Part shown: in pieces, positions 36,002 through 55,562 of the stretch
Numbering within the stretch: position 1 is the first letter of the stretch
Layout: each line of letters begins with the position of its first letter
Assembly: GCA_951812545.1 (NCBI GenBank)
Contig: OX638317.1
Span: 2,297,848 to 2,361,847, forward strand
Length of the DNA: 64,000 nt
Origin: an uncultured Latescibacterota bacterium
GTDB taxonomy: Bacteria > Latescibacterota > UBA2968
Direction of reading: 5' to 3'
Position numbers and translations under genes: made by a program
Notes under the pieces: generated by a model
Seen by the model: the letters and a program-made list of their open reading frames with translations, nothing else
Told to the model about the DNA's origin: nothing
The model's database searches: none

Positions 36002-36059
36002 AACCTGTACTCCTTCAATAGAGTGTCCCTGAACAGGATGACATACTGATCTCTCGTAT

Positions 36060-37253
36060 CTAACGAATATGTTTGTGTACCTTATCTCTGACGCGGCACA
36101 GATTTTCATCCAATTCGGCGATTTCAGAAGAACCATAGGGATCTGTTGCGCGTTCATAGATTTCCTTGTTGGCCTCCCTCACGGCATCCACGAGCCCGGG
36201 CTTTGGGTTGCCGTCCCAGTCGTACAGGCCTTCCATCATGCCGGACATTTTCATCAACGGACCGTCATCAAGATCGTACAGAGTCGCGCAAAAATTGACG
36301 CCGCACACGTTCGAGTCTCGCAAGTGGCGGTCGAGCAGCAAGCCGTAGATGCGGCCTTTGTGTTCGGACGTCACACTGCGCGGATTCTGGCGTGACGCTT
36401 CAAAAATATGGCCTGACTCCTCGTCAGATACCAGCACAGACCTGCCCGTTGCTGCACTCTGTTCGGCAAAACTGATGTCGCGGTTAAAGTGCTGGGGCGA
36501 AAGCATATCGACATAAGGCGTCAAAGCCTCCCACGTTTTCAGGTCAAAGGACTGCTCCTTGACATAAGGTCCGAGGATCAGGTGGTTGGGATCATGCCGG
36601 CGTATCGCATCGTAGATCATGCGGTACATGTGAACCGCCATTTTGCGGATATTCTCCTGCTCTGGTGCTTTGCTGTCGAGCGACGGTATTGAATTGATCC
36701 AGTTCTCCGGTCTGATGAAGGTGCCGAAACCATAGTAGTATCCCATCATCAACGGATCATCGGCGTACCGCGAGCAAACATCGGCTACCAACTCTTCTAC
36801 CCACTCCTGGTAAGCAGGGGCGAAGATATCTGGTCGTTCCTGACCTTCCGGCAACTCGTTGGGATGAGGGATCAGGAAGAGTCCGGCAGCGTAGGGGAAA
36901 GATTCGCGGCGAAACAGCGCCACCACCTTCTCGACATCGACATAGCCCTTGGGGTCCCGACACTGGCTCGTCGCGCCTGCGAGTGCGCAGTTAAACCCGA
37001 GCGCGCGTATCTGGCCGAACCACTTTTCAATCCACGCATCCTTGTCGCCGTCGTAAAGCTTTTGCACGGTCGGCTGACTGTTCCCGGTGTAGATATGGGA
37101 CAGCGACACGGGGAAAAAGGCGTTGCCCTCGGGTGTGATGAACCATCTGCGCCCGTCCAGTTCCTCGAGATGGAACCAGCCGGTGCTTTTTCCCTTCAGT
37201 TCGGTTGTGCCGCCGTACGAATCAAGTGTATGTGTCATGGGTTTTGCCTCCAT
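36060..37253 (-). CDS. Putative TIM-barrel glycoside hydrolase-like protein
   Basis: This is a clean 397-aa ORF. The N-terminal segment (GWFHLEELDGRRWFITPEGNAFF) is typical of clan GH-A-like enzymes. It is the first gene of the long minus-strand catabolic cluster. The family assignment is uncertain. Confidence 0.5.
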   Translation of the reverse strand: MEAKPMTHTLDSYGGTTELKGKSTGWFHLEELDGRRWFITPEGNAFFPVSLSHIYTGNSQPTVQKLYDGDKDAWIEKWFGQIRALGFNCALAGATSQCRDPKGYVDVEKVVALFRRESFPYAAGLFLIPHPNELPEGQERPDIFAPAYQEWVEELVADVCSRYADDPLMMGYYYGFGTFIRPENWINSIPSLDSKAPEQENIRKMAVHMYRMIYDAIRRHDPNHLILGPYVKEQSFDLKTWEALTPYVDMLSPQHFNRDISFAEQSAATGRSVLVSDEESGHIFEASRQNPRSVTSEHKGRIYGLLLDRHLRDSNVCGVNFCATLYDLDDGPLMKMSGMMEGLYDWDGNPKPGLVDAVREANKEIYERATDPYGSSEIAELDENLCRVRDKVHKHIR

Positions 37254-37269
37254 ATTTTATTCATCACCC

Positions 37270-37305
37270 CCAGTGGACAGCGGCCAGTCGGTCGTAATAA
37301 TCGTC
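37270..37305. repeat. Left copy of the 36-bp direct repeat bracketing the island
   Basis: CCAGTGGACAGCGGCCAGTCGGTCGTAATAATCGTC matches 50584-50619 at 35/36 positions in the same orientation. Confidence 0.9.
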
Positions 37306-37385
37306 CCACATTTCTCACGCAGATACGACCTCAAAGGCCGTGATGCAGTCTGTGTCTGGTCATATTATGCACCTTTTTCTTTTGA

Positions 37386-37447
37386 TATTTGCAATTTACT
37401 CGAAAAAACAGGGGCTTGCAATGGCAATTTGGAGTATAAAGATTATT
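37386..37447. repeat. 62-bp direct repeat, copy 1 (toxin-stub-like)
   Basis: TATTTGCAATTTACTCGAAAAAAC... matches 38005-38066 at 56/62 positions with no indels. One frame reads ...FAIYSKK..., which resembles the C-terminus of Gp49/HigB-type toxins. Confidence 0.85.
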
Positions 37448-37613
37448 GCAAAAATCAGTGGACAAAAGATCTATACGAATTGCCCAACTGATGGGTGTAT
37501 CTGTTCGAACATTGCAAGACTGGGAGCAGGACCGCCGTCGTCCGTCGGGTGCAGCCCGGACACTACTGATGATCGCAGACAAAAATCCTCAAGCGATATT
37601 GGATGTAATGTGA
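37446..37613 (+). CDS. Small HTH antitoxin-like protein (XRE/COG2944-type), possibly a remnant
   Basis: The frame reads ...IAQLMGVSVRTLQDWEQDRRRPSGAARTLLMIADKNPQAILDVM*. This is the classic xxLGVSxxTLQxWEQGRRxPSGxAxxLL pattern. Only a TTG start (37446) is available and there is no clear RBS. Confidence 0.45.
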   Translation: MQKSVDKRSIRIAQLMGVSVRTLQDWEQDRRRPSGAARTLLMIADKNPQAILDVM

Positions 37614-37656
37614 GAACCTGATTGAGTTGATCCCCAATTGACGTGAGGGCATCGGT

Positions 37657-37893
37657 TTAAGAAAAAAGAACGAGTAGAGAATTATAATATTCTTTACCCG
37701 TTTTCTTTTTGCCAGACAGCGTTTGGCAAATCGGTTGTTGAGGGAATTGATCAAATTCTCCAGACAATGTCTGGAGAATTTCGCTGAGTTCTGATTTTTC
37801 AGACAGTGTCTGAAGAATTTGTACAGGTGGATACGATTGGTAGAACAGATGCGCTCGCAATGCAGTATTCAACAATTTTGTTTGCGATCTCAT
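37657..37893 (-). pseudogene. DUF1016/YhcG-type PD-(D/E)xK nuclease N-terminal fragment
   Basis: This is a 78-aa ORF reading ...LRAHLFYQSYPPVQILQTLSEKSELSEILQTLSGEF.... It matches my recollection of the FYxxYP...QTxSxKSE...xQTxSGxF repeat in DUF1016 N-termini. The nuclease domain is absent. Confidence 0.4.
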
Positions 37894-38004
37894 CCAAAAG
37901 CGATTCTGTTATTTTTTGTTCTTTCGCATTCATACCCTGAGTATTTCCGCGCAGTCGAACCGAGCGAATCGCCCATCCGTTTTTTGCATATAATGATAAA
38001 TGCC

Positions 38005-38066
38005 TATTTGCAATTTACTCGAAAAAACCGGGGCTTTCAAGGTCATTTTTGAGTATAAAGATTATT
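38005..38066. repeat. 62-bp direct repeat, copy 2
   Basis: See 37386-37447. Here the toxin-like frame (...RIAHPFFAYNDKCLFAIYSKKPG...) ends at the TAA at 38074-38076. Confidence 0.85.
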
Positions 38067-38080
38067 ATACTCAAAATTTA

Positions 38081-38114
38081 AGACCAATCAGATAGCGATA
38101 CTGATTGGTCTTTT
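38081..38114. terminator. Bidirectional rho-independent terminator-like hairpin
   Basis: The hairpin is AGACCAATCAG-atagcgata-CTGATTGGTCT, an 11-bp perfect stem. It is flanked by AAAATTTA on one side and TTTT on the other. It lies about 65 nt downstream of the 1262-aa gene stop. Confidence 0.55.
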
Positions 38115-38178
38115 CAGGCTGATATATTAGGTCTGGTGTCACACTGAAGAAGCGTTCGCGTGATACCAGCACCAACTC

Positions 38179-41100
38179 TCAATAGAGAAGTCTCTTCCTG
38201 ACCTCTGCTTCGGAATCCCACCTCTCGGCATCGCGCTCGTAAGATGCGGCGACGGCCTCGAGGACCCTTCCAACAAAGGGATAGTCGAAGAGCAAGTGCT
38301 CGGCCCAAGCTCGGTATTTCGCAACGAGTTCGTGTTCTTGTTTGCCCCCTTCCTCCCGCTTATGAACGCCGCGAGAGTTGCGAATGCCGCTATAAAATCC
38401 CTCGCCGATTATCGTCGATGCTATCCCTTCTATCGCCTCGCAGACCTCTTCACAGGGCCAGATGCCATTCTTGCCAGCGGGTGCCTTGGCAAGCAGTTCA
38501 CCGATGCAATGATCCCCAATATCGGCGCGGGCGTAATTGCGGCACAGTTGCCGAACCTCAGAGATCCACGCGGCGAGTACGTGTCCATCGATCCTTCCGT
38601 CATCATTTGTACCAGGAATCTTCGTTATTTCGTTGAGAAGGAGATACGCTCCCGATCCGGCTGCCTCCCGTTGCTTGGGATCCTCGATTCTCCATTCCGG
38701 CGGGTCCTCTCCTTCGTCACTCCTTTTGTACATAAGTGCCATCACACGGGCAAAAAACGCTGGTGATTCCGTGATCTGGTTTTCGAGATTCGGGATTCCA
38801 TGCTGGCTGTACTCAAGGGGGTTGATGAACATAAATTCGAGTTCAGCCATTTCATCACGGGTGACGCCCGGGCGGCTATCAAGCGAATCCAGTGCTTCGG
38901 AAATGGAGTAACCTTCGGGCGGGTAATGGCCTTCCGGTTCAGCATTAACTGTGACAACTTCGCGCAAAAGTTTCTTGAGACGGGCCGTCTCGATATCCTT
39001 GAAACTCATTTGGACAGCGTGGAAAGCCGCACGCGGTCGCCGGACCTCCCGAAGACAATCAATCAGTTCGGTAAGTTCGGCAGGCGTGTACCGGATCACT
39101 GATGGGGAGACATTCCTCCAGTACTCGGATCGGGTATCCTCGCCATAGTCGTCCAGAAAACGCCAGGTGGATGCCTGGAACGGCGCACATACAAATAGCC
39201 GCACGCGGGCAGCGGACAACTCCTTCGCCGTAGCTTGCAACACCCCAGCGCGCGAGTCCTCCTCGATCGAGACAAGAAAACCCTGCAAGCACTGCTCAGC
39301 CTTACTCTGGAAGTCCCCGTCAAGTGAAAGGCAACACTTGATGAAATCGATCTGAGACTTCACATCGGTAACGCACGACGACATGTAATGGCCGACGATT
39401 TCGGCGGCACCACTGTCTGCAAGCAATTTCTTAACACCCTGAAAACCGCACTCTGTCCATATCTCGGTCATCGCATCGCGGCGCAGTCTGTCGATCCGCT
39501 CTACGTGCTTCTGATGGTCGAAATCTTCTTCTTCGATTTCGTCAGCCAATTCCCGCACCCACGGATTGGCGAACAGCCATCCATGCTTTATGACTGGATC
39601 GTGGGGACGGAGGCTCTCATAAACTTCACGGGTACGGGCGCGGGTCGCTTCTCCAAGTTTCTGGCGGCCCAGCCGAGAAAAGGCGGAGCATCGGATGCGC
39701 TCGCGCAGCACGGCCTTAGCGGATTCAGTGGCGTTCTGGGACCATTCCTGAATCAGGTCCCAAACCTTGGTCTGGTCTTTTTCCACCATACGAGAGAGAG
39801 ACTCTATGAGATCGCCAAGGGTTTTTTCGTCGTGAGACGGCCAAGCAATCAGCAAGTCCAGAGCCTTTCGTTCGAAGTCGTATATCTCCTTGCGTGTGAC
39901 AACCTGTCCGGCACCTGAGGCGTCACTACGCCAGCGGGGTCTGTAGCTAGGGAAGCCTGTTCGGGAACCCGGCTGGATCTGCGCGATGCAGATCGCCCAG
40001 CCAATATCCGGGAAACGTTTGATCAGAATTTCGAGCACCTTAACTCTCTCCCTCACCGAAGCTGCCGTCTGCGGCATCCATGATCTGAAGATGTCCTGAA
40101 GACTATCGCCCGGTTTATTCATCCAGTTGTCGTTTATTTTTTGCTGAGAGAGTTGGGCGAGGATTAACGATACGCGCGAGAGGTTTTGCGGTTTCCAAGC
40201 AAGATACTCCAACGCCCGGAGAAGGCCCGTTCTCGACAGTGCCAATAACGAACCACTGTCAACCGGCTTGAGAAGGATAAAAACAATAGGATCTTTGCTC
40301 TGTAAATCTTCTTCAATGAGGTTCAAAAATACACTGGGCGCGGCTTCTGCGAAGCGCGGCAGGTCGTAGTCGTGGGAGAGTAATTTTTCAAGCGTCAGCG
40401 GCGTTAGGAGTCTTCTGATCAGACCTTCGACTCGGCCTTCGACATTGATACCGAGGCGACTCTGGAATAGGTCGTTGCCGTGGACCGAGAGGATGACGAG
40501 GGTATCACAGATACTCTCGCGCAACGCGTTGGAGTAGTTGCGTTTCTTGCCGCGCAGGGCCGCGGCCCACCGTTCTTCTTCTGCGAGTTCAAGTGTCGGA
40601 TCGGACTCGGAAAGGACGTATTTGGCGGCGGTGAAGAACCGGTCGAGGTCCGCTGATATGACCCTCCTCGCTATTGCAAACAAGGCGTCAATCTTGGAGG
40701 TAACACCGTGGAACCGTCCGGAAGACCACACCGGGCTGTCATCGAACTCAAGTAGGCGCGCGACGTCGTCTTCGATCTCCTCGTAATTTCGATTCGCCAC
40801 GCAGGAGACAATCTCGCGATCCGCCTCCGATTCTGCGTGCCAAGTACCAACCATGGCCACCGGCACGAGGTCTTTTGCCGTTTTATCATCGCGTGCCCAT
40901 TCCGGCATTTTGATTGCGGCATTCTCCGAGAGGCGACGGCGCAAGATCGTTGGTGATCGGCCCGATTCCCTTGCAAGACGCTCAATTTTATCTCTCTCGA
41001 GTCCCATCGCGGTGAGTGCCTTATTGAAGGCGTCGTAGCCAAGTAAGTCGAGCGTAATATCGGCTTTTGTATCGACCGCGTTGCGTGTACGGAACACGAT

Positions 41101-41967
41101 GCAATGAAGTCGCCGATGGGCGTCACCGAGCTCGCGCTCGGTATCATGGGAATGGACTATCGGGATAAAATTCTCGGAGGACGCAACGAGCGTCTTGAGC
41201 GGCTCTGGAGAAGTGAAGACCGCGGCTCGGTCCTTGTATTGGCGGAGATCTTTGTTATCGAACAGACAGGCAAGAAAGGCGAGCGCCTCGTCCCGCGAGT
41301 CAGCCGCGACGTAAAAAGGCTTCTCACTCGGCTTGTCAAGCCACTCTTTGAACTTGTCCCGGTACACAGCGATCGAGGATGCGAAGATTTCAGGCGTTAG
41401 ATGAGGCTCGCTGGCGTTCGCCCAGCGGTGCCATACCCGTTCCAGCGTTTCATAGCCGCTGGTTGGGTGATTGAGTTGTTCGGCAAGCCAGATCTGCGCC
41501 GGCACCACCTGTTCCAGCCACTGCTCGAGATCGCTTGCGTCGAAAGCTCTGACTCCCTTCCAGTCGCCAGTCTCTTTCTTTTCGTTCTCCCAAGCGGTCT
41601 TACCAGGCCAGTTGCGAGGTGTCACAAAGACAAAGGTGCTATTTGCTCGTTCAGCGGAATCAACCGACTTTAGCCGATTGGAATAATCCGTCTCCGCTTT
41701 GTCACGTGGGTTCTGGTTGGTACCGAACTCCCAATAGGAGACCCCCTCAGGAATCCAAGGGTTGGAAGTGCCAGATGTGACGATACCATCGGGACCCTGG
41801 CGCTGCGCGTTGTCGTAGCCGGGAAAGTCAACTTGATGGAGGTCACGGCCTGTTGAATGAACGAGCTTTCGTAGTAAGACAGGAAGGAGGGTGCGAGCAT
41901 CGATCTGGTCTGCCCAGTTCTTGATCTGGCTTGCCTTGATGGTTAAAAAACTCGGGAGGTTGGTCAT
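38179..41967 (-). CDS. 1262-aa orphan protein: N-terminal nuclease-like module plus a long helical body
   Basis: The frame is clean, with an ATG preceded by GAAGAAGG. There is no Walker A/B motif. Residues 1-170 carry a D60...E80-F-G...K90 pattern that loosely fits an Mrr/PD-(D/E)xK layout. The remainder is helical-repeat-like. An R-N-x4-H motif (IRNSRGVH) lies about 65 aa from the C-terminus. Confidence 0.7.
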   Translation of the reverse strand: MTNLPSFLTIKASQIKNWADQIDARTLLPVLLRKLVHSTGRDLHQVDFPGYDNAQRQGPDGIVTSGTSNPWIPEGVSYWEFGTNQNPRDKAETDYSNRLKSVDSAERANSTFVFVTPRNWPGKTAWENEKKETGDWKGVRAFDASDLEQWLEQVVPAQIWLAEQLNHPTSGYETLERVWHRWANASEPHLTPEIFASSIAVYRDKFKEWLDKPSEKPFYVAADSRDEALAFLACLFDNKDLRQYKDRAAVFTSPEPLKTLVASSENFIPIVHSHDTERELGDAHRRLHCIVFRTRNAVDTKADITLDLLGYDAFNKALTAMGLERDKIERLARESGRSPTILRRRLSENAAIKMPEWARDDKTAKDLVPVAMVGTWHAESEADREIVSCVANRNYEEIEDDVARLLEFDDSPVWSSGRFHGVTSKIDALFAIARRVISADLDRFFTAAKYVLSESDPTLELAEEERWAAALRGKKRNYSNALRESICDTLVILSVHGNDLFQSRLGINVEGRVEGLIRRLLTPLTLEKLLSHDYDLPRFAEAAPSVFLNLIEEDLQSKDPIVFILLKPVDSGSLLALSRTGLLRALEYLAWKPQNLSRVSLILAQLSQQKINDNWMNKPGDSLQDIFRSWMPQTAASVRERVKVLEILIKRFPDIGWAICIAQIQPGSRTGFPSYRPRWRSDASGAGQVVTRKEIYDFERKALDLLIAWPSHDEKTLGDLIESLSRMVEKDQTKVWDLIQEWSQNATESAKAVLRERIRCSAFSRLGRQKLGEATRARTREVYESLRPHDPVIKHGWLFANPWVRELADEIEEEDFDHQKHVERIDRLRRDAMTEIWTECGFQGVKKLLADSGAAEIVGHYMSSCVTDVKSQIDFIKCCLSLDGDFQSKAEQCLQGFLVSIEEDSRAGVLQATAKELSAARVRLFVCAPFQASTWRFLDDYGEDTRSEYWRNVSPSVIRYTPAELTELIDCLREVRRPRAAFHAVQMSFKDIETARLKKLLREVVTVNAEPEGHYPPEGYSISEALDSLDSRPGVTRDEMAELEFMFINPLEYSQHGIPNLENQITESPAFFARVMALMYKRSDEGEDPPEWRIEDPKQREAAGSGAYLLLNEITKIPGTNDDGRIDGHVLAAWISEVRQLCRNYARADIGDHCIGELLAKAPAGKNGIWPCEEVCEAIEGIASTIIGEGFYSGIRNSRGVHKREEGGKQEHELVAKYRAWAEHLLFDYPFVGRVLEAVAASYERDAERWDSEAEVRKRLLY

Positions 41968-42109
41968 GGTTCATGCCTTCTTCAGGATGTGATCTCGATG
42001 GGATGCTGCTCGCCCTGCAATTTCGTCAACTCAATTACGATCAACAGATACAGCAATGCCATGTAGAAACTCCTTTTCTGCTGAGATATTGTCAAATAAT
42101 CTACGGTGT

Positions 42110-43945
42110 TTATCCATTGGCAATGAGCTTCAAGTTATCGGGATTCCAGATTTTTTGCGCTAACAACTGATATAGAGCTTGGCGTTGGTCTAAATCATCT
42201 TTTTTAAAATCGTCATGTGGCTTGAACGCAAGATTAAGCTCGTGTTGCTCCCTGAATTTTTGGAACCCGGGGTTGCGATCATAGGCATTTTTATGCAGAC
42301 TTTGGGCGAGTAGGTTTTGTCCAAAATAGTGTTCGAGCTTTTCGGAATATGGTTTATCACTAAAGCTAGCGTTGAAATCCTTGGGCAGTAGGAGAAGACC
42401 GCCGATTCTGTCACGATATTGCTCAAAATCAACTGGGTGGCTAAATTCATCATCGTGCCGCTCATACTTGTTTGCCCAGATGTGCTCTATTTCGTACCCT
42501 TTGTTATCTCTTTGGTTGTACTCCGCATAGCGGGAGGGTTTGCCTGATCCAGTTTCTACAAAGTCGGTCAGGCGTGCCAATATACGATGAATCTTTGGAC
42601 CATTCTGCTGATTTAATGAGAATGAGTTGTTGTGCATAAATGTTTCTGTATCTTCTGCGAGATGCTTAGTGAGTATCTTGGTTAGATCATCTACAGACTT
42701 TCTTCTTATGCTCCTTATTATCGGAAAAATTTTACCGCGCATGAAACTCTCGGCGGTCGACCTTCCGTTCCAAATGTGGCGCGTGATCAAGATATCAATA
42801 AATGAAGCGACTATACGAAGCTTGAGTTTAATCTCATCTTCGATATCAGTATGTCTAAGTGGTGCCAGCAACAATGGATATTGAAGCGTGAAATTATTAT
42901 TTGCATTGTAATAAATCGGTTCATATCCACCTTTTAGCCTTTCAGCCGCAAGACGAATGAAATTATACCACTTAGCATAAAAATTAAAGTCCTTAAAGAT
43001 GAAACTGAAAAAATCTGTTGGTTGGCGAAGATTTAAATCATTCTCCTGAGATCGGACCCATCGGTGGAACTCTGATCCAATATCTTCGAAGTGACTTATC
43101 TGATCAGCATACTGACTGCGTAGCCAACTCTTGATTGCATCGGCTTCTTCCTCCTTGCCAAGTTCTTGCAACTCAGAAATACGAGACCGCCAAGCATCAT
43201 TGGCATCATTACGCTTGGTAGTATCACTGATATTGGTCAAGAGATATCCTTTAAGCATATCTGTGGGTGTCAGTGAGAGACCACGGTCATTCATAGTCTC
43301 AAAAATGGTGTACGCGTCCTCATCAGAATAAGCAGTGATTTCAACGAGATGGACATTTTCTGTGAGCCAGTCAGCGAAATACGGTAGGGCATCGTTATAT
43401 TCTGATTCGCCATTTTTTACATCATTAGCGAGTGTATCTGGCAGATGAGCCTCAATGTCTTGGTAGCGGTTCAGAATATTGACAACTGACTCAGGTTTAC
43501 CTGCCTCATCAAAAGTATCATCTTGCATAAGTGCGTTCATACATGCAAGGCGTTCTGGAACATTAAGATTGAATGAATGTTCACCATACTGCACTGAAGA
43601 GATCATACTGGTAATTGACTGTCTTGCATCGGCGGGGAGTTGGTGATACAGGCTGATGAGCAGCAGCGTTATAGTTGTAATACGTTGCTGTCCATCGATG
43701 ATGAACTTTTGATTGTCCTTTTCACTGATAATGACAGACCCGAGGAAATAATGCCCGTACTTTTTGACTTCTTTGCGAGCATGGTTAGGATTATAACTGT
43801 CCAAGAATTTTTCGCACAGATCATTAATAAGCTCGATAACCTGTTTTTTTTCCCAGCGATACTCTCGTTGATAATAATCAATGGAAAACTTTTCCTCACT
43901 GAGCATGGATCGGATGTTTTTAGCATCACCGTGTATTTTTTTCAC
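42110..43945 (-). CDS. DUF262-DUF1524 (GmrSD/SspE/BrxU-like) type IV modification-dependent nuclease
   Basis: The GTG start is preceded by GAGAGGTGA. The N-terminal ParB-like DUF262 shows YYQREYRW and IIDGQQRITT. The C-terminal His-Me finger DUF1524 shows YEIEHIWA...IGGLLLLPKDFNASFSDKPYSEK. Confidence 0.85.
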   Translation of the reverse strand: MKKIHGDAKNIRSMLSEEKFSIDYYQREYRWEKKQVIELINDLCEKFLDSYNPNHARKEVKKYGHYFLGSVIISEKDNQKFIIDGQQRITTITLLLISLYHQLPADARQSITSMISSVQYGEHSFNLNVPERLACMNALMQDDTFDEAGKPESVVNILNRYQDIEAHLPDTLANDVKNGESEYNDALPYFADWLTENVHLVEITAYSDEDAYTIFETMNDRGLSLTPTDMLKGYLLTNISDTTKRNDANDAWRSRISELQELGKEEEADAIKSWLRSQYADQISHFEDIGSEFHRWVRSQENDLNLRQPTDFFSFIFKDFNFYAKWYNFIRLAAERLKGGYEPIYYNANNNFTLQYPLLLAPLRHTDIEDEIKLKLRIVASFIDILITRHIWNGRSTAESFMRGKIFPIIRSIRRKSVDDLTKILTKHLAEDTETFMHNNSFSLNQQNGPKIHRILARLTDFVETGSGKPSRYAEYNQRDNKGYEIEHIWANKYERHDDEFSHPVDFEQYRDRIGGLLLLPKDFNASFSDKPYSEKLEHYFGQNLLAQSLHKNAYDRNPGFQKFREQHELNLAFKPHDDFKKDDLDQRQALYQLLAQKIWNPDNLKLIANG

Positions 43946-43988
43946 AGATTCACCTCTCTAAGAATTCTGTTGAAAGCGATATCCTTTT

Positions 43989-44447
43989 TTAAATTTCGTC
44001 TTCGGGTTCAATACCCATCCAACAGAGCAACTCTATTTCGTCCTGATTGATCGGAGGGAGAAGCGGAGGGGGTTCAGTCGGCTCGAGGCCAGTCTCGAGG
44101 ATTTGCTCAATCAGGTAACTTGCGAGTGATGCGCCCTGGTGCTCATCCGATTCGAACCAACCGCGCAGCATGATCTCTTCGCGCCGCGGCCAGGGCGATT
44201 CCAAGATGTCGAGTGCTCGATGCACCCGTTCGTCGGACATATCTAATGGCGGATTGTCGCGGATAAACTCAGCCACGCGGTGGTTCAGTGGACACACCTG
44301 TGACTGTAAGTTCGCGGGAGACGCTTTCTCACAGACTTTCTGGATACTATCTGGACGTGTGTTCTTCACTCTCAATGAGGCGCACGTGACAGGACTTGAG
44401 TTGCCTATTATCAACGGCTGGCACAAAGCGCAGGTACGTGCATGCAA
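43989..44447 (-). CDS. Small hypothetical ORF (up to 152 aa, or 83 aa from ATG 44240)
   Basis: It is open only from a TTG. The first in-frame ATG at 44240 has no RBS. It is noticeably more GC-rich than its AT-rich neighbours. It may be a remnant or a small accessory protein. Confidence 0.3.
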   Translation of the reverse strand: MHARTCALCQPLIIGNSSPVTCASLRVKNTRPDSIQKVCEKASPANLQSQVCPLNHRVAEFIRDNPPLDMSDERVHRALDILESPWPRREEIMLRGWFESDEHQGASLASYLIEQILETGLEPTEPPPLLPPINQDEIELLCWMGIEPEDEI

Positions 44448-44494
44448 AATCGATGCCCGAACCCATCACCGCACAGAAGAACATACCGCAGTAT

Positions 44495-45607
44495 TCAATC
44501 TACAGGCGCTTCCTCATATTCTGGTGAAATTAGTCCTTCCAAGGCTTCACCAACTGTCTTGAAAAGCGGTAAATCAAGCAGATTCTCTTGTTCACTATGA
44601 GTTGGTGAAGGCAATTGGGCCATTGGCAACTCTTTTTTAGAACCTACAAATATGAACCTCTTTCTCTTTTGGGCACTACCATAATTTGCAGCATTTAAGA
44701 TGCGACTTTCAATATTGTAGCCCAGACTATTCATCTGTTCAGTTATTTCCTTGAGCAAAGAGCCTTTTTCTATTCCCCTTAGATTTGATACATTCTCCAT
44801 TACAAAATAAGGTGGAACTATCTCTTTCAGGAAACGGATAAATTCAAAAATCAACGCTCCCCGAGAATCACTGGTTCCCTTTTGTTTACCTGCTTGACTG
44901 AAAGCCTGGCAAGGGGGACCGCCATAAACTACCCGAATATCTTCGCGGGAGGTTTTGCACTTTTTAAGTAACTGCTCAGGAACAATTTCTGAAATATCCG
45001 CATTAAACACTGCCACTTTATCTTTGAAATACCCCTTTAGCGTATCGCAACGGTCTTTTTCAATTTCAACACAGGCTGTCGGCTCAAAATGACTCCCATC
45101 ATCCCCAAATTCTACACTCTCAGCAGCTATATCTAATCCTCCAGCTCCACTAAATAAACTAAGTGTCTTGAAAGTTTTCTCTTGCGGCCAGTGTTTCTTC
45201 AGAGAGATCATTAATGATTTAAATATGGCCTTGCCGAGTTCGATTGGCACGGCATCTCCAACCTGACTCTGAACACTGGTCAGAGACCCCTTAAATTCAA
45301 TATCATCTGGAAATCCCTGTAATCGTGCAGCTTCCCTCGGCGTGATAAATCGATTCTCATGAGGGTGAACAAATTTATTAAAAATATAACCCGTTACTGT
45401 TAAAGAAGGTTGGCTCGGATCAAGTCTTATGATGCGCAGATTAGGGCCTCCCTTGCGAGTAGGATCTTCTTTAACATAGTAACGAAAACTTTTATGCCAT
45501 AGTTCCTCTGGCAGATCCTGCATTTTCTGACCGATACCCAGCGCATTGATCCGTCGTTGGACCTCTATTCCAACTCTGCGAGGTTGATGATTAAAGACTT
45601 CCAGCAC
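44495..45607 (-). CDS. DNA (cytosine-5)-methyltransferase, circularly permuted motif order
   Basis: The GTG start is preceded by GAGGAG. Motifs IX/X (REAARLQGFPDD at residues 91-102, GDAVP at 117-121) come before motif I (FSGAGG, 152-157). Motif IV (PPCQ, 231-234), motif VI (ENV, 271-273) and motif VIII (QKRKR, 313-317) follow. Confidence 0.88.
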   Translation of the reverse strand: MLEVFNHQPRRVGIEVQRRINALGIGQKMQDLPEELWHKSFRYYVKEDPTRKGGPNLRIIRLDPSQPSLTVTGYIFNKFVHPHENRFITPREAARLQGFPDDIEFKGSLTSVQSQVGDAVPIELGKAIFKSLMISLKKHWPQEKTFKTLSLFSGAGGLDIAAESVEFGDDGSHFEPTACVEIEKDRCDTLKGYFKDKVAVFNADISEIVPEQLLKKCKTSREDIRVVYGGPPCQAFSQAGKQKGTSDSRGALIFEFIRFLKEIVPPYFVMENVSNLRGIEKGSLLKEITEQMNSLGYNIESRILNAANYGSAQKRKRFIFVGSKKELPMAQLPSPTHSEQENLLDLPLFKTVGEALEGLISPEYEEAPVD

Positions 45608-45622
45608 GGTCTTCTCCTCATA

Positions 45623-46897
45623 TTAAAAAGTAAATGTCGATCTGATCCATTCATCACGGGCCGAAACCTCAATTAAAGAAACAATACCATCAACGAGATT
45701 AAACAGCCTTGTATCCGGAGGCAAATCCTTAGCACGTCTCACAGTCCCCGATTCATCCCTTGTCCAAATTATATCTTTTAGTGCACTCATATACGCCTCA
45801 AAATGTCTAACCGCCGGAATATTTGTTACAATACCCACTTTGTAGTCAAATTTATATGCAGGCTTTCCTTCTGCGCCGATTTTCAGTACTTGATATGTCG
45901 CTTTTTTAAGATCATCCGTTCTATCCATACCCACACTCGTTTTACCATCAGAAATTGTCTCATAACCTATCCTCGGCCTCTTTGGCCAATCATCTGGTCT
46001 TGGATCAGGAGATCCACAGGCATTGGTAAACCAATATGGGAAATTTTTCTTACGCGTACCATAGCATTCAAAAGCGTCCTTCCAGAATCGAAAATAACTT
46101 TCAAGAAACGTGGAATCTAAGTTTAAGAGGTTGAGAAGTCCATCATATGCCCACGCTGTATCATTCTTTTCTTTTTTTATTCCCAACGGAAAAATGTGAC
46201 CATCCCAAATATTTTCATCTTGTTTGTAAATTGGCAAATATATTCCAATTTCAGAACCATAAAGTCCTGTGTGATCAGTCTCTCTATGGGATACGGTCTC
46301 TGTTAAATAATCTATCTCTTCGGTTAATTCTTGTGTCTGAACGACCAACGGCAATGTACAAAGCGGAGCAGCTTTAACCTCAGCGAAAAAGACCACTTCA
46401 GAGTCTAATGAATGATCTTGAAAAATCAAATCTACCGGCTCCGTTCCCCGTTTTATCTCAATGGATAAGCCTTTCCGATGAAACATTTCAGCCCAAAAAA
46501 GAGCTAAAAGTCTTGAAGTTGTCGCACCAATGGATCCAGACTGAGGTTTATTGGCTTTATGAAACACAAACTGATCTTTGAGTAAACATCTTGAGCAGGC
46601 ATTAATATATGGATAGAGTAAAAGCGGAGATTCTCCTTCTGGGCAATAAACCCATCCCACGTGAGCAACAGAGCCATAATATTCTGCTGCAACGAGAAGA
46701 TCAAAAGCCGCTGCCAAATGAAGGGGTTTTTCTCTTATATCAGACCTCAGACTAATTTCGTCTAATAGCTTAATTATCAAAGATTTTTCTACTTTCTCCG
46801 AATGAAATGGCTTTGTCCGGCTGAGAATTTCTTTAATCCAAGTATCGCCATCAGGATGTGGGGCAGTAGAAGAAAATAGACCGATTTGTTTAGACAT
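45623..46897 (-). CDS. Putative type II restriction endonuclease (PD-(D/E)xK)
   Basis: This is a 424-aa ORF that ends 15 nt upstream of the MTase start. A candidate catalytic motif is P154-V-D156 ... E173-V-K175 (EPVDLIFQD...FFAEVKAAP). Confidence 0.55.
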   Translation of the reverse strand: MSKQIGLFSSTAPHPDGDTWIKEILSRTKPFHSEKVEKSLIIKLLDEISLRSDIREKPLHLAAAFDLLVAAEYYGSVAHVGWVYCPEGESPLLLYPYINACSRCLLKDQFVFHKANKPQSGSIGATTSRLLALFWAEMFHRKGLSIEIKRGTEPVDLIFQDHSLDSEVVFFAEVKAAPLCTLPLVVQTQELTEEIDYLTETVSHRETDHTGLYGSEIGIYLPIYKQDENIWDGHIFPLGIKKEKNDTAWAYDGLLNLLNLDSTFLESYFRFWKDAFECYGTRKKNFPYWFTNACGSPDPRPDDWPKRPRIGYETISDGKTSVGMDRTDDLKKATYQVLKIGAEGKPAYKFDYKVGIVTNIPAVRHFEAYMSALKDIIWTRDESGTVRRAKDLPPDTRLFNLVDGIVSLIEVSARDEWIRSTFTF

Positions 46898-47096
46898 AAA
46901 TCACCCATCAAAAGGTTAAAGATTACGACAATTTACGAATATATTATACTACACGTTAGTTCACGTATCAAGACCAAAAACTTACTGATTCAAAACCCGT
47001 AACGATGGAAAAGGCCCGAAACTGGCTTAGAGAGCACGGCCAAATCCTCGAGCAGGATATCTGACGAGGATATTCAACCCCATCGACTATAGAACA

Positions 47097-48431
47097 TCAC
47101 AAGCGATTGCTCCGCATTTGATGGAGTTCTTGCGCAACTACGTCAAACGGTAATTTAAAAAAGTTGAACTGCCCATAGAGCCTTTGTAGAAGGGGATGAA
47201 GAACCTCAGCAAGATTGTCTTGTATCTGTTGCTGAGTGATCTGCCCCGTTAATATGACTTCATCTGTACTAATGGGATAGGCCCCAGAGAGTAATCGTTC
47301 TGAGTGCTGATGCCCCGTTTCAAGAAATCGCCCCTTCAGCCCCGTAAAACGGCAGTGAAGAGCAATTTGATCAACCTCTTCGAATGTTTCCGCAAAGCGG
47401 CTTGCAAATAACAATCCCTCGCCAATACGCCAAATCGGTAAAGGGATATAAAACGCACGACCAGGAGTAATGTCCCGTCTATCTTCAAGGTATCCGCGGA
47501 TGGTGTAGAGTTTTCCATCGAGAGAAGCCCGCCAGAAATCGCAAATGTGCGGATTTCCAGATGTCTGTCTATAGTATGGTCGCCCAAGCCATGATTCTAC
47601 AAAAACATCCAAAGGATATGGCCTCAATTCTGAGTTTTGTATCTCCAAGAATGGTGTCCATCCCGACAATTTGACCTGTCTCGCGATACTAAGCCGATTT
47701 CGAAGTTCGTCAAAGCCACTCATCGGTGTCGCTTCGACTAAAGAAAAAGCCATCTCGTAGTAGCCGTGCGGAAATCTCGCTGGAGAGTCATCAGGCGCAT
47801 CTAACACCAATTCCTCCCAACGATCATGGGCTGCGGTGGAGTAATCTCGGAGATCTTCAAGTACACTTGGCCTTGAGTCTTGCAGTTCTACGCGCCCCGT
47901 CATAATTGAGCGAATCGCTTCCAGCATATCGTCTCGGTTAGCCCTCAAGCAGCGATTAAACAAATTACGCCATTCTTCTGATGTCCGAGGTTCCTCGCTT
48001 TCTGGACCTGGCTTTCGAATATAGCAACGGTTTAGGGCAATGACTCCTGGACACTGGTTCTTGCTCATCACAGGTACAGTAACCGTGCCGGGGACAATGA
48101 CTACTGGATGCGACACACTCGTATCTGGGTGCAATACATTGTACATCTCACAGTGAAACCTTGGCTCGGCATATCGGCGTATTGCCGCGTTTACAGAGTC
48201 TTGTGTGATCTCGGGTATTTCCTTCGGACATGGCCCTGACACAAGGGTTTGGCCCTGATCTGCAAAGCCAATGACGATGCGCCCACCACCATGGTTGGCC
48301 AATGCGATCGCGGCCTTCGCGAGTGTTGCCCTATGCTTGTTATTCGTCAGATCTAACCAATCCTTGTACTCAGCATCAAGGTCTTCTCTCGGTTCAGTAA
48401 TAAACGGCTGTAGTTCTTCGATTGAAGCCAT
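47097..48431 (-). CDS. Schlafen/AlbA_2-domain protein with an uncharacterised C-terminal domain
   Basis: I chose the start at MASIEELQ (ATG 48431). The N-terminus (REDLDAEYKDWLDL...AAIALANHGGGRIVIGFADQG) fits the AlbA_2 consensus (E-x-L-E-F-K ... NT-GG-x-IxxG). There is no HATPase or wHTH tail. Confidence 0.7.
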   Translation of the reverse strand: MASIEELQPFITEPREDLDAEYKDWLDLTNNKHRATLAKAAIALANHGGGRIVIGFADQGQTLVSGPCPKEIPEITQDSVNAAIRRYAEPRFHCEMYNVLHPDTSVSHPVVIVPGTVTVPVMSKNQCPGVIALNRCYIRKPGPESEEPRTSEEWRNLFNRCLRANRDDMLEAIRSIMTGRVELQDSRPSVLEDLRDYSTAAHDRWEELVLDAPDDSPARFPHGYYEMAFSLVEATPMSGFDELRNRLSIARQVKLSGWTPFLEIQNSELRPYPLDVFVESWLGRPYYRQTSGNPHICDFWRASLDGKLYTIRGYLEDRRDITPGRAFYIPLPIWRIGEGLLFASRFAETFEEVDQIALHCRFTGLKGRFLETGHQHSERLLSGAYPISTDEVILTGQITQQQIQDNLAEVLHPLLQRLYGQFNFFKLPFDVVAQELHQMRSNRL

Positions 48432-48637
48432 ATTTACCCTTCTTTGGATTCTGTACAACCTGGTAATCAATCATCTGTAATAGGTTCTGCGACCACTGTG
48501 GATACATGCATACGGCTTGTCTGGACCACGCGCGATGGAAGCCGCGCGAAGCAAAGCACAAGGGCACCGTACGCACTCCGGTGGCGCGAGATAACGGAGA
48601 TTTCGTTAGAGGGCGGGGCAGGTGGTGGTCGTGGGAC

Positions 48638-49738
48638 CTACGAGGGATCAGACCCACACTCTCGGCAGGGTTGCTCTTCCTGCTCCAAGAGCTTAACCAC
48701 TGATGACGCGACCCAACGATCTGAAACTTGTAGCTGCCGCCAATCTGTAGACGACTGTGGTTGGACCTTTATTTGACTACAATCGTTCTCGTGGATCACC
48801 GCCAACGCTTCATCAAAAACGATAATCGCGGGCGATGGGGCCATTGCTGCCTCGGCGGGGACAATGACCCCCGCTCCCGGCTCTAGTGTCCTCGCGACAT
48901 CGGCGATCATCTCCGGACTGACGGACGCGACAGCGAGCCCCATCTCCAATGAATGCGGGTTTATCTCGATCTGCATATTATTCAGGTGCTGCACTAAGTG
49001 GATTACATTATTGGCCGTGAGGCTCAAGTTACCCCGTTGGAGACCTAAGACATTGACCAAAGTCTTACCGTTTTGGAAGAAGTCATCTTCGGCTTTCTTA
49101 CTACGATGAATGATCCAATTCCTGAGTAATCGCCACTCCCCCATCAGGTCAGCTTTTACATGGTGGGGGTCCACTTTCATGGCAGATGCGATCTTCGGTC
49201 GAATGGTCTCTTCCCACAGGTGATACGTAGAGACGACAAATGAGTTGGCATAGAGACGCTCGAAGTCGCCAGCATCGGCGATCGACTCGATAACTTCCTC
49301 CGCAGGCATCTCAGCGAGCACAGCGGCCTCTCTGCCGTCCGGGCGCAATGTAGTGACTCTAAGAGGCTCGCCTCGGCTGGCTAGGCGCTCTAGGTGTTCC
49401 CGCATAGCCGTTCGACTAGCCATGATGCCCACAAACCAGGTCGTCATCATCTGGCACTCTCGCGAGAACATCCGCATTGCGCTGTCGATTTCATCCTTAG
49501 ATTCGTTGCTGACCGGCGGTATACCCGTGTACATGAGAGTCAACATACCACTAGGCAAACCTATTTGGCGCATCACCGTAGCAGGTGATATGTCTCCTCC
49601 AATCCAGGTCCATTTTGTGCTCTTGCCGTCGCCACAATCAGGACATGCAATGGCGGGGCTTCCCTTTTCGAAGTCGTGTGTATGCCCACAGTCGGCACGA
49701 TAGGTACCTGGGAAAGAAAATTTTTTGCTGTCTGACAC
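48638..49738 (-). CDS. Zn-ribbon protein with a HEPN-like R-N-x3-H motif
   Basis: The GTG start is preceded by a strong AAAGGAGGGGG RBS. The N-terminal segment CGHTH...CPDCG (C17/H19, C32/C35) is ribbon-like. The central motif is EWRLLRNWIIHRSK (R206-N-W-I-I-H211). There is a C-terminal CRECG. Confidence 0.55.
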   Translation of the reverse strand: MSDSKKFSFPGTYRADCGHTHDFEKGSPAIACPDCGDGKSTKWTWIGGDISPATVMRQIGLPSGMLTLMYTGIPPVSNESKDEIDSAMRMFSRECQMMTTWFVGIMASRTAMREHLERLASRGEPLRVTTLRPDGREAAVLAEMPAEEVIESIADAGDFERLYANSFVVSTYHLWEETIRPKIASAMKVDPHHVKADLMGEWRLLRNWIIHRSKKAEDDFFQNGKTLVNVLGLQRGNLSLTANNVIHLVQHLNNMQIEINPHSLEMGLAVASVSPEMIADVARTLEPGAGVIVPAEAAMAPSPAIIVFDEALAVIHENDCSQIKVQPQSSTDWRQLQVSDRWVASSVVKLLEQEEQPCRECGSDPS

Positions 49739-50316
49739 TTATTACCCCCTCCTTTAGTCTGTACGGATGACTAGTTGCTTTGATTATAGCCATTTACTCA
49801 GGCCTAAAATTACATTAAGAGTCTATTTATTAAGATATTAAGTGTTTTGAGTTCAATGGCGATTTCCATGCCAAATGACCCACTAGTAATGCTAGTATGT
49901 TCACATTGGTTTCTTCTAAATCATAGTCATAAATGCGATAATTGCAACTTTTATTATTCGCATTTGTCGCCTCAGGGATGTGGCATATTACGATGATTGT
50001 GCATGCGGTTCGATAGCGATTGATCGATCAAATATACCAACGGTTTTGAGTGCTGATGTCAATAGTCCAATGTAGTTTTCTTAGACCCAGTCGGCAACCA
50101 TCTGATCCGGGGCGTCAAAGACAACCGATGTATCTCTGATCCCGGCGATGAAAAGCGGCTTAAACTAACTCTCATAAGACTGAAGGAGAATCTTCTCCCC
50201 TATATTTTTTAACACCTTTTCCCATACGTCTCTGTGTGGGGGACGCCGCATGGTAAACCTGTTTTCTACCTCGATAAAGTCAGACCATGTTCTTCAACCC
50301 TGTCGGGATTGACACA

Positions 50317-51189
50317 CTAAAAGCGGGAAACTTTCAAAGTTTCCATCAGATATCTACAGTTGATCCCCATTTTGTCGTCAACTGAACCTTCGCCTTCGTT
50401 TGGACGCGGGGGATCGAGATCGAGCGTGATCCATCCGTCGTAGCCTCGCGCATTCAGCATGGCCCAAATCGCAGGGTGATCGACGCCGCCGGACCCCAAA
50501 TTTTTGTACAAAATTTCCTCCGCGTGCATCTCCTTCGTCGGTGTCGGGCCAGTATAACCGCGATACGACGCCTTCGAATCCTTCCAGTGGACGGCGGCCA
50601 GTCGGTCGTAATAATCGTCGATGAGCTGAACGGGATCGCCTCCTCCGAGGTTGAGCTGTGCGGTGTCGGGAATCCAGGACACGACATCTGGGTCGGTCTG
50701 ATCAAGAAGGGCGCGAACTTCCTCAGGCCGCTCAATCGGCCCCCAGATATGCGGGTGTGGCGCGATCGTCACACCCATCTCAAGCGTTCGCTTGCCGAGT
50801 TCTGACACAGTTTCTGAGATCGCTTTGATGTCATCCGCGGTTGTTCCGTTTTGCGGGCGGCTCCCCATGTTGATCTTGAAGTGCGTGCAGCCAAAGATCT
50901 TCAGGAAATCGCGGCAAAAGGCGACGTGGTCGGCGATTGTTTCCTGACGTTTTGACCGATCGATGAATTCCATCGACTGACCGGGCCCGCCGTTCGAAGC
51001 GGTAATGAGCCGAATACCGCGCTCGTCGAGGAGAGCCTTCAGAGCTTGCGGGTCGTCGAGCCAGGCGATCAGGCCACTGCGGTAAGGTTCGACGCCCGGC
51101 AGACCGTGCTTAGCGATCAGTGCCGCAGATTCAGCGGTGAAGGCTCCAAAAATGGCGCCGCCCATAGCAAAGTGGATGTTTGATGACAC
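50317..51189 (-). CDS. Sugar phosphate isomerase/epimerase (xylose-isomerase-like TIM barrel)
   Basis: This is a 290-aa ORF with family-typical segments HFKINMG, IAPHPH, VHWKD and GYDGWITLDLD. It contains the right copy of the 36-bp repeat. Confidence 0.78.
   Translation of the reverse strand: MSSNIHFAMGGAIFGAFTAESAALIAKHGLPGVEPYRSGLIAWLDDPQALKALLDERGIRLITASNGGPGQSMEFIDRSKRQETIADHVAFCRDFLKIFGCTHFKINMGSRPQNGTTADDIKAISETVSELGKRTLEMGVTIAPHPHIWGPIERPEEVRALLDQTDPDVVSWIPDTAQLNLGGGDPVQLIDDYYDRLAAVHWKDSKASYRGYTGPTPTKEMHAEEILYKNLGSGGVDHPAIWAMLNARGYDGWITLDLDPPRPNEGEGSVDDKMGINCRYLMETLKVSRF
50584..50619. repeat. Right copy of the 36-bp direct repeat (inside the TIM-barrel gene)
   Basis: CCAGTGGACGGCGGCCAGTCGGTCGTAATAATCGTC encodes DDYYDRLAAVHW on the minus strand. 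Confidence 0.9.
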
Positions 51190-51244
51190 GATGATCTCCT
51201 GTTTGGTGATGTTGTGTATCTGGGGTGCTTTCCCTGTATCGGAT

Positions 51245-52471: not shown

Positions 52472-52602
52472 TTCTCACAGGTATCCTGATTATTGAGCTC
52501 TATTTTGTTTATTTGCGAGGGGATTATCAATTGCTTTACCAGACAAGGTTTCACCTTTTGTCGTGTCGTGCTCAGGCCATTGTATGATATTGGGTTTGGC
52601 GT

Positions 52603-54060: not shown

Positions 54061-54078
54061 AAAGACCGCCTCCTCTGC

Positions 54079-55542: not shown

Positions 55543-55562
55543 CTGTATCTCCTGTAATGGAT

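Follow-up and report, generated by a model that had tools for sequence, protein, structure and literature searches.

A probable lineage-wide defense hotspot in Candidatus Latescibacterota, filled by a mosaic of restriction modules and candidate immune genes

The 64,000-nucleotide (nt) window analyzed here, taken from contig OX638317.1 of an uncultured Latescibacterota bacterium (assembly GCA_951812545.1), contains a variable stretch of restriction genes and candidate immune genes at ~37266–50302, as delimited by the breakpoints in the synteny of related genomes. This slot is anchored on one side by a gene encoding a xylose-isomerase-like TIM-barrel protein (50317–51189, minus strand; Pfam AP_endonuc_2, 2.9e-24) and on the other by a conserved 397-aa gene without a Pfam family, recognized by its synteny (36060–37253, minus strand); both anchors lie outside the island. 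Antisense artefacts aside, the island holds seven open reading frames (ORFs) of ≥150 aa, all on the minus strand and within 38179–49738, namely those of 366 aa (48638–49738), 457 aa (47097–48470), 424 aa (45623–46897), 370 aa (44495–45607), 152 aa (43989–44447), 611 aa (42110–43945) and 1262 aa (38179–41967), and all modules are transcribed in the same direction as the flanking genes. Two plus-strand ORFs of ≥150 aa (38296–38766 and 39388–39918) are both antisense within the 1262-aa gene, and the statement of a preliminary description of this DNA, made from the letters alone, that every sizeable island ORF is on the minus strand thus holds for seven of seven. That description had also seen no integrase, transposase or tRNA and had left the route of acquisition open. 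We likewise detected no tRNA within the 64-kb window, no Rfam match in 36000–51500 and no intact integrase or transposase in the window; however, an IS91-type remnant is present in the window, and insertion sequences (ISs), TnpB and a tyrosine-integrase remnant occur in the same slot of relatives.

We found that the TIM-barrel gene is conserved, at 94–98% amino acid identity, in 12 Candidatus Latescibacterota metagenome-assembled genomes (MAGs; loci L001–L010, L036 and L037), many of which are closed chromosomes. This sample comprises one genome per species (GTDB representatives), each locus with no more than 10 kb of flanking DNA, and the loci L006/L089 and L001/L088 each belong to one genome. 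Upstream of the TIM-barrel gene (GNAT, sulfatase, GH5), the relatives are collinear with the window, while the downstream DNA is not, and the variable DNA begins 14–72 nt beyond the TIM-barrel stop codon in every one of the 12 genomes. The far side of the slot is formed by the 397-aa gene or its PhyH neighbors in L002, L003, L010, L037 and L089; the 397-aa gene itself is 94–95% identical in L002 and L010, present in L089 and truncated by a deletion in L037. In size, the slot varies between 0 and more than 33 kb. The deletion in L037 makes the TIM-barrel gene lead directly into the final third of the 397-aa gene (gap of ~0 kb), in L002 the slot measures 1.67 kb with a YhcG/DUF1016 gene as its sole content, in L010 it reaches 5.1 kb, in L006/L089 ~19.8 kb and in L001/L088 more than 33 kb, and in L004, L005, L008 and L036 the TIM-barrel gene is followed by more than 10 kb of other cargo. 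Most of the cargo is unrelated between genomes, and every module of the window shows presence/absence polymorphism by synteny; the island genes are thus not conserved as core genes at this locus in the 12 genomes.

The cargo of the relatives' slot comprises many kinds of known defense system. These include HEC-01A (AAA_21, 4e-49) with an adjacent gene that gives a weak, sub-threshold match to DUF4276; a Type III methyltransferase (MTase, 5e-206) with its restriction endonuclease (REase, 4e-151); the Hma system (HmaA, 6e-185; HmaB, 3e-110) plus DUF499; a DncV-like CBASS cyclase (5e-68) with a patatin (phospholipase) effector (5e-99); a Type I MTase; a pVip-like radical-SAM gene; and a Bil-like set of ThiF/JAB, E2 and Multi_ubiq genes. 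Genes of the AbiJ_NTD4, YhcG, AlbA_2, TIR, RmuC and AAA-ATPase_like/PDDEXK_9 types and MNT/HEPN pairs are present as well. The same slot further contains IS66, IS3 and IS630 transposase-like and TnpB-like ORFs, assigned by eye from sequence, as well as a tyrosine-integrase remnant. We consider it very likely that the segment in the window is the local filling of a lineage-wide defense hotspot of this Candidatus Latescibacterota clade, in which anti-phage genes have repeatedly been gained, replaced and lost. The cassettes might have entered after uptake of DNA, by homologous recombination via the conserved flanks, or through the action of IS elements and recombinases that have left remnants in the relatives' slot.

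A defense island as such is ordinary and of a known kind, and will not surprise a specialist. The core defense hotspots of Pseudomonas aeruginosa (cDHS1 and cDHS2) are fixed slots of variable size between conserved genes (PMC10250203), and defense-island hotspots have been described in the Escherichia coli pan-genome (PMC10121019). Core hotspots are filled with known systems, genes of unknown function and fragments of mobile genetic elements (MGEs), their GC content is below that of the host, and no single family of mobile elements accounts for them (PMC10250203; PMC10121019). The slot in the window is likewise fixed in position, variable in size, filled with a mixture of defense genes, unknown genes and MGE fragments, lower in GC than its host and not linked to one family of mobile elements. 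It differs from the Pseudomonas and E. coli hotspots in that it belongs to an uncultured phylum, is co-directional within a glycan-utilization array, has no flanking tRNA or transfer-messenger RNA and is documented by 12 genomes.

The GC content of the window is heterogeneous, varying from 0.44 to 0.65 in 1-kb windows, and the mosaic composition claimed for the island at the outset is borne out by the GC and tetranucleotide profiles, which are not flat. The REase, methyltransferase and GmrSD genes have GC contents of 0.396, 0.420 and 0.414, respectively, with GC at third codon positions of 0.31–0.42; the AlbA_2 gene is intermediate (0.482), and the 1262-aa gene (0.549), the 366-aa gene (0.534) and the 152-aa ORF (0.538) are host-like. 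By comparison, the 37 non-island genes have a mean GC of 0.539 (sd 0.047, minimum 0.448), so that the three AT-rich genes lie below all 37. The tetranucleotide distance of 42–48 kb from the rest of the window corresponds to z = 2.7–5.6, and the 42–47 kb block is a compositional outlier. The wide variation of GC across the window and the host-like GC of four of the seven ORFs would be compatible with an ordinary core genome region in which low GC is a property of single genes and nothing was acquired horizontally. This reading is, however, already refuted by the presence/absence polymorphism of every module and by the recurrence of the restriction-modification (RM) cassette at a different locus of another genome (L096), and it also conflicts with the position of the three AT-rich genes below all 37 others and with tetranucleotide z values of up to 5.6; we therefore give it practically no credence.

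The order in which the slot was filled can be approached through L007, in which the 366-aa gene (96% nucleotide identity) and the 1262-aa gene (89.5%) lie ~0.5 kb apart, as compared with 6.5 kb in the window, and in which this spacer holds an IS91-type remnant. Since the two genes are nearly adjacent in L007, the 6.5 kb at 42037–48538, comprising the AlbA_2 gene, the RM cassette, debris and the GmrSD gene, represent a nested difference. Within this block, the 152-aa ORF is host-like in GC and has an AT-rich module on either side, which suggests separate arrivals of the RM cassette and the GmrSD gene; these AT-rich genes are probably the latest imports. The stepwise accretion proposed in the preliminary description is thus supported twice, by L007 without the 6.5-kb block and by the RM cassette with the same sharp ends at the unrelated L096 locus. 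Taken as a whole, the slot here holds at least five independent modules (366-aa, AlbA_2, Type II RM, GmrSD and 1262-aa), with remnants of earlier occupants left between them.

The Type II RM module (44492–46995, minus strand) is a mobile cassette that consists of its own promoter region, a gene for a 424-aa REase (45623–46897; PADLOC REase_II PDLC03440, 2.6e-103) and a gene for a 370-aa C5 methyltransferase (44495–45607; C5 DNA_methylase, 2e-66; MTase_II, 3e-82), in line with the pair of endonuclease and C5 methyltransferase initially recognized at this place. The two genes are separated by 15 nt and are kept as a unit in L096, where the cassette (9903–12403, 88.7% nucleotide identity) is positioned at an unrelated locus near an IS and toxin-antitoxin (TA) genes. 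The cassette starts ~100 nt upstream of the REase ATG, ends 3 nt past the methyltransferase stop and has the same upstream end in L009 (12625); the best sigma-70-like site of the region, at 46971–46943, falls into the ~100 nt before the REase start. At the cassette ends in these three contexts (46995 and 44492 in the window, and in L096 and L009), we saw neither a target-site duplication nor an inverted repeat nor a neighboring recombinase.

In an alignment with M.HaeIII, the methyltransferase displays motifs I (FSGAGG), IV (PPCQ), VI (ENV), VIII (QKRKR), IX and X. Its residues 148–338 align to M.HaeIII 3–176, covering motifs I–VIII, and residues 58–133 to M.HaeIII 243–321, covering motifs IX–X. 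Judged from this motif order, the enzyme is circularly permuted, with motifs IX–X placed N-terminally to motifs I–VIII in one chain, and its length of 370 aa is native, since the copy in L096, 90% identical, is equally long. The order is that of the M.BssHII-type (topology 'H') C5 methyltransferases; it is known for M.BssHII, M.Alw26I, M2.Eco31I, M.Esp3I, M2.BsaI and 22 further REBASE entries, and represents a natural but rare topology (PMC5944983). What sets the window enzyme apart from these named systems is its partner, which belongs to an endonuclease family of 429 homologs, none with a functional name (the source names are all "hypothetical protein"). A search of the REase against PDB sequences returned no solved relative. 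As far as the sequences allow one to predict, the endonuclease would cut unmethylated foreign DNA and the permuted methyltransferase would protect the host.

The 611-aa protein (42110–43945, minus strand) is a GmrSD-family Type IV (modification-dependent) restriction enzyme. It matches GmrSD_N (4e-34) and GmrSD_C (2.5e-9) and, over its full length, PADLOC HEC-06 (5.7e-45), and the label of a GmrSD-like gene that it had been given by eye is therefore upheld. The protein carries DGQQR at aa 84 in its N-terminal DUF262 domain and histidines in a C-terminal DUF1524 domain of the His-Me finger type, and among solved chains the DUF262 protein 9jfl_B comes closest to it (7.7e-10). Both domains, the DGQQR motif and the HEC-06 match are common to the window protein and to GmrSD, BrxU and SspE-type DUF262-DUF1524 enzymes. 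A difference from these is its location ~550 nt (43946–44494) from a C5 methyltransferase gene; because of this proximity, the enzyme presumably tolerates the 5-methylcytosine pattern written by its neighbor. By analogy with its family, it would cleave DNA with modified cytosines and would in this way cover phages that evade classical RM by hypermodification.

The largest gene of the island (38179–41967, minus strand) encodes a 1262-aa protein which homolog searches identify as a member, devoid of a helix-turn-helix (HTH) domain, of a very large uncharacterized family; the module common with L007 spans 38190–42036. The protein had been regarded as a giant orphan, which does not hold: a word-indexed search retrieves at least 2986 homologs, with identities of up to 73% across phyla, and an exhaustive search of representatives at 50% identity yields 6780 clusters at E ≤ 1e-3, of which 2876 reach E ≤ 1e-30. 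The top 120 homologs, 67–88% identical over the full length, are encoded by Alphaproteobacteria, Syntrophobacteraceae, Paenibacillus and others. Most members of the family have ~1356 aa with an N-terminal HTH_3/HTH_31 domain and are annotated by their sources as "HigA family addiction module antitoxin" or "helix-turn-helix transcriptional regulator"; the Latescibacterota copies are uniformly without the HTH. Of the 25 plasmids that carry the family, 12 are conjugative; phages almost completely lack it. Its genes stand alone on a conjugative plasmid of Shewanella as well as in other phyla, and we found no conserved partner gene, as the upstream neighbors in L088 (an M78 peptidase gene) and L089 (266 aa) are unrelated to each other and to the 366-aa protein. 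In Syntrophobacteraceae (L082–L087), a gene for a DACNV-domain protein follows the HTH-bearing homolog, and a PIN/PhdYeFM pair lies ~1 kb upstream on the opposite strand; the DACNV-domain gene may be a lineage-specific partner of the HTH-bearing homolog.

Outside the HTH, searches of the 1262-aa protein against Pfam, NCBIfam and PDB sequences gave no match. A profile of the large family compared with PDB sequences retrieved HigA/XRE HTH chains only, and Pfam searches of seven diverse members at E ≤ 1 gave HTH domains only. A local similarity was detected with the PADLOC model PD-Lambda-4_A, in which aa 540–649 of the protein are collinear with positions 562–663 of 1283, at a weak E of 4e-4. 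The same model is matched in 24 of 36 diverse family members (best E 3.8e-10), and any other non-HTH model in at most 3 of the 36. In the AlphaFold2 (AF2) model of aa 1–1200 (pLDDT 70.9, pTM 0.46), we noted an alpha-beta-beta-beta-alpha-beta core at aa 24–143, with D60 and K90 fully and E80 nearly invariant in members down to 33% identity, followed by a second alpha/beta domain at aa 218–294 and by an alpha-solenoid that runs from ~aa 300 to the end. With this model, Foldseek retrieved solenoids of the HEAT type; Avs4 in complex with a phage portal (8dgf_B, TM 0.19) came at rank 9, and TM-scores were low throughout. Judged by the defining motif, the protein does not belong to the STAND family: it contains no Walker A motif, neither [AG]xxxxGK[ST] nor a looser variant, has AADSRDEA following strand 1 of its second alpha/beta domain, and hence lacks the P-loop NTPase motif.

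PD-lambda-4A has been renamed Avs8A and is a STAND protein that combines an Mrr nuclease with a P-loop NTPase (bioRxiv 10.1101/2025.07.02.662641); it senses the phage major capsid protein, and some Avs8 proteins have degenerate Walker motifs (bioRxiv 10.1101/2025.07.02.662641; bioRxiv 10.64898/2026.01.04.697583). The 1262-aa protein resembles it in length (1262 aa as compared with a 1283-position model), in the collinear local match and perhaps in the predicted order of two alpha/beta domains and a long alpha-solenoid. In contrast to Avs8A, it has no Walker A, its similarity is limited to ~110 residues, its family usually bears an N-terminal HigA-type HTH, and no conserved Avs8B-like partner adjoins it. 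On the basis of the sequence match and the predicted fold, we tentatively propose, as one possibility among several, that the 1262-aa protein is a nuclease-plus-sensor protein related to Avs8A in which the NTPase is degenerate or lost. More speculatively, the whole family might represent cross-phylum, plasmid-borne single-gene immune sensors akin to Avs8A, with a PD-(D/E)xK-like effector and an alpha-solenoid recognizing a phage protein, without a functional STAND NTPase and mostly autoregulated by the fused HigA-type HTH; we hold this to be rather doubtful. If true, the common "antitoxin" annotation would conceal an undescribed class of pattern-recognition defense proteins, and the Latescibacterota hotspot would be a mine for more systems, e.g., the 366-aa Rx4H protein.

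The gene for the latter protein (48638–49738, minus strand) forms a single-gene mobile module. The 366-aa protein combines an N-terminal zinc ribbon with an Rx4H motif and has just 46 homologs; in its WR..RNW..H segment, residues W202, R203, R206 and H211 are invariant in 23 aligned homologs down to 46% identity, and the zinc ribbon is absent from distant members. One homolog is encoded beside a serine recombinase in a locus resembling an integrative and conjugative element (ICE; L090), another stands alone among housekeeping genes (L092). We obtained no PADLOC, NCBIfam or Pfam family match, no HEPN model of Pfam even at E ≤ 10 and no useful match among PDB sequences, and a Foldseek search of its AF2 model (pLDDT 73.8) against the PDB was empty at E ≤ 0.001, a whole-model search being liable to miss a small domain. 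Of the HEPN-like character ascribed to it previously, the conserved Rx4H motif stands, but neither a hidden Markov model (HMM) nor a fold supports it. The HEPN assignment was accordingly set aside, and "HEPN-like" stays a motif-level guess because no HEPN profile matches.

The neighboring gene (47097–48470, minus strand) encodes a 457-aa Schlafen/AlbA_2-domain protein, as had been supposed. Its aa 29–153 match Pfam SLFN_AlbA_2 (3e-9) with 37.9 bits, above the gathering cutoff of 25.3; the C-terminal 300 aa are without a family match, and the protein has no match in PADLOC, NCBIfam or the PDB. The annotated 5' end of this ORF is overlapped by a 138-nt remnant of a different, earlier AlbA_2 gene (48408–48545, minus strand), and for this reason the true start is probably the ATG at 48431. 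By tblastn, the remnant is 54% identical to aa 124–162 of an AlbA_2/HATPase_c_4 protein of L036, and by blastn 82.5% identical to L036 15018–15080.

HMM searches against Pfam and PADLOC thus leave three island ORFs in defense families. For the 1262-aa, AlbA_2 and 366-aa proteins we infer a defense role, in which they would add further layers to the restriction systems, e.g., by linking the recognition of a phage protein to a nuclease. Several points speak against the interpretation of the slot as a defense hotspot. These three proteins, i.e., three of the five modules, match no validated defense system at full length, and their defense role is argued from location, together with local similarity in the case of the large protein; the hotspot statistics are small (12 genomes), as they cover species representatives with at most 10 kb of flank; and no recombinase was found in the window. 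One could instead see the slot as a general accessory-gene dump, in which the RM cassette is a selfish addiction module, the large and AlbA_2 proteins are regulators, and the 366-aa protein has nothing to do with phage defense. The names that the large family bears in databases, "HigA family addiction module antitoxin" and "helix-turn-helix transcriptional regulator", would fit such a view, as would the frequent annotation of AlbA_2/HATPase_c_4 proteins as regulators, the toxin-antitoxin debris and IS elements in the same slot, and the 366-aa protein without a fold match. Yet, the 1262-aa protein of the window lacks the very HTH that names its family, 1,260 residues of which lie outside any regulator domain; PD-lambda-4A is matched by 24 of 36 family members and is the one recurrent non-HTH model; and many kinds of known defense system share the slot in relatives. 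We therefore judge the accessory-gene dump unlikely and favor the defense hotspot.

A 36-nt direct repeat with sharp ends raised the question of a single mobile element. Its right copy (50584–50619, minus strand; codons DDYYDRLAAVHW) lies within the TIM-barrel gene, 88 codons from the end of the gene. Its left copy (37270–37305, minus strand), a piece from the interior of the TIM-barrel gene that is identical to the right copy at 35 of 36 positions, lies 13,314 nt away and 16 nt upstream of the 397-aa gene. At the position of the left copy, L007 (20640–20870) and L008 (17790–18010) carry a C-terminal remnant of a tyrosine recombinase (..HQLRHTAATELV..LLGHRNLQTTQRY..) after the PDDEXK_9 gene. 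Together with the IS and integrase fragments in the relatives' slot, this would suit a single integrated element (an island, or a degraded ICE or prophage) that used the 36 nt within the TIM-barrel gene as att core and subsequently lost its integrase. However, the right copy is located inside an intact gene. Among relatives, the parts of this gene before and after the core have diverged to the same degree, which gives no sign of an element-borne replacement end, and for lack of such a divergence discontinuity the att reading was demoted. The variable DNA begins past the TIM-barrel stop codon in 12 of 12 relatives, and not at the repeat; the left copy is decaying, being present at the same place with indels in L010 and L089 and absent from L002; the content differs module by module between genomes and its composition is mosaic; and no integrase, tRNA or conjugation genes were found in the window. 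A single element consequently appears to us highly improbable as compared with a hotspot filled module by module. Given the indels and the absence in relatives, the equal divergence of the TIM-barrel halves and the start of the variable DNA past the stop codon, we take the repeat for the decaying trace of an ancient recombination, possibly an integrase-mediated one, and not for the boundary of a present element. The possibility that the left copy encodes a leader peptide (MWDDYYDRLAAVHWG) was rejected because the reading frame is not kept in L010 and L089.

Both edges of the island are non-coding and contain gene debris, as the preliminary description had it. At the right edge, the window is 94.8% identical to L004 down to position 50009, where a DnaA-domain-I-like pseudogene (50009–50251, minus strand) with two in-frame stops (...SYES*FKP...DWV*ENY) ends the shared stretch; the L004 copy is free of stops over this stretch and matches DnaA domain I (4tps_B, E 8.7e-6). 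It is accompanied by the 3' remnant of an IS91-type transposase gene (49776–49892, minus strand), of which 49776–49886 are 98% identical to L007 13750–13859; by tblastn, the remnant matches the tail of ORF L007_13378, the IS91 label being given by eye. Between the GmrSD gene and the RM cassette, the region of the 152-aa ORF (44001–44487, minus strand) consists of a frameshifted C-terminal helicase-type remnant and a 111-nt piece. Compared by tblastn with L007_10952, a Helicase_C fragment, it gives matches in two frames, and the 111-nt piece (44001–44111) recurs in L005 (19117–19227) and L089 (7976–8086). The 152-aa ORF has no family matches and was dismissed as a gene, being debris with a helicase-type remnant in two frames.

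Towards the left edge, the first 34 codons of a CoiA-like gene are retained at 38175–38276 (minus strand; tblastn, 71% identity to aa 1–34 of L007_17805). L007_17805 carries Pfam CoiA_N and follows the large gene in L007. The debris proper of this edge (37386–38113) is composed of a 62-nt direct repeat, with copies 90% identical at 37386–37447 and 38005–38066, a truncated HTH-antitoxin ORF (37446–37613, plus strand) and pieces shared with other hotspots. Such pieces match L001, L002, L003, L007, L008 and L010, and in L002 they correspond to the 5' region of the YhcG/DUF1016 gene. The 62-nt repeat recurs on the side of the 397-aa gene in the slots of L002, L003, L007, L008 and L010, and looks like a common 5' or promoter region of small TA-type and YhcG genes. 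Finally, junction alignments with L010 and L089 revealed at 37306–37345 (minus strand) the last codons (...ITAFEVVSA*) of the AAA-ATPase_like/PDDEXK_9 gene, which is the usual neighbor of the 397-aa gene in relatives and is intact in L008, L007 and L089.

Two further short sequences were noted around the slot. A conserved element of ~110 nt (GTATTTRRCTTGTTTTGTTATCC...TTTAGATA...GCTGTTGCAA...) starts the variable region just past the TIM-barrel gene in several relatives, i.e., from ~10887 in L003, L036 and L010, from ~10940 in L005 and L009 and from ~11100 in L001, and stands before different genes in each of them; a search of the window did not find it. A sequence of ~24 nt, GATGAATAAAATnTGGAGGCAAAACC, lies in front of the start codon of the 397-aa gene as well as that of the TIM-barrel gene (37254–37279 of the window, minus strand; 9970–9993 in L003, L006, L036 and L037), and may be a common intercistronic or ribosome-binding element.

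With this locus, the core-defense-hotspot concept, derived from Pseudomonas and E. coli, is extended to an uncultured phylum known solely from metagenomes. The two anchor genes allow the slot to be extracted from the genomes of the clade and mined for new systems, and such anchor-based mining seems worth following up together with the large HTH-fused family and the 366-aa family. The "HigA antitoxin"/"HTH regulator" annotation should be revisited for a family of at least 6,780 clusters, whose body of 1,260 residues is uncharacterized and shows a recurrent local link to Avs8A. The RM cassette adds a natural C5 methyltransferase with, by its motif order, a circularly permuted chain, paired with an uncharacterized endonuclease family.

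As for the surroundings, the flanks had been described as consisting entirely of genes for the metabolism of sugars and sulfated glycans, and this is largely so. The near flanks encode GH5, GH43, a sulfatase, an alpha-L-fucosidase, an arylsulfotransferase and three sugar-isomerase-like TIM barrels, but also four PhyH dioxygenases, an enolase-superfamily protein and a GNAT protein. The flanks (52479–55556 and 51245–52471) vary too, as the GH5 and sulfatase pair is absent from L002, L007, L036 and L037, and the GNAT gene from L001. As listed, the 397-aa ORF overlaps with the PhyH ORF at 35207–36157 by 98 nt (36060–36157), and the true start of the PhyH gene is probably located further downstream. 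Exact-sequence look-ups of both anchor proteins returned no record; their called gene starts probably differ from those of the database versions.

Proteins 84–91% identical to the TIM-barrel anchor are encoded in MAGs labelled Poribacteria, Caldilineaceae/Anaerolineae, Spirochaetales and Planctomycetota (loci L011–L034), and ~80% identical ones in Gemmatimonadota, which points to transfer across phyla among co-habiting bacteria or to binning errors. Sponge-associated Latescibacterota of similar gene content have been described (PMC12993501); in view of these and of the 88–91% identity of the TIM-barrel gene in Poribacteria MAGs, the habitat of the bacterium is probably a marine sponge.

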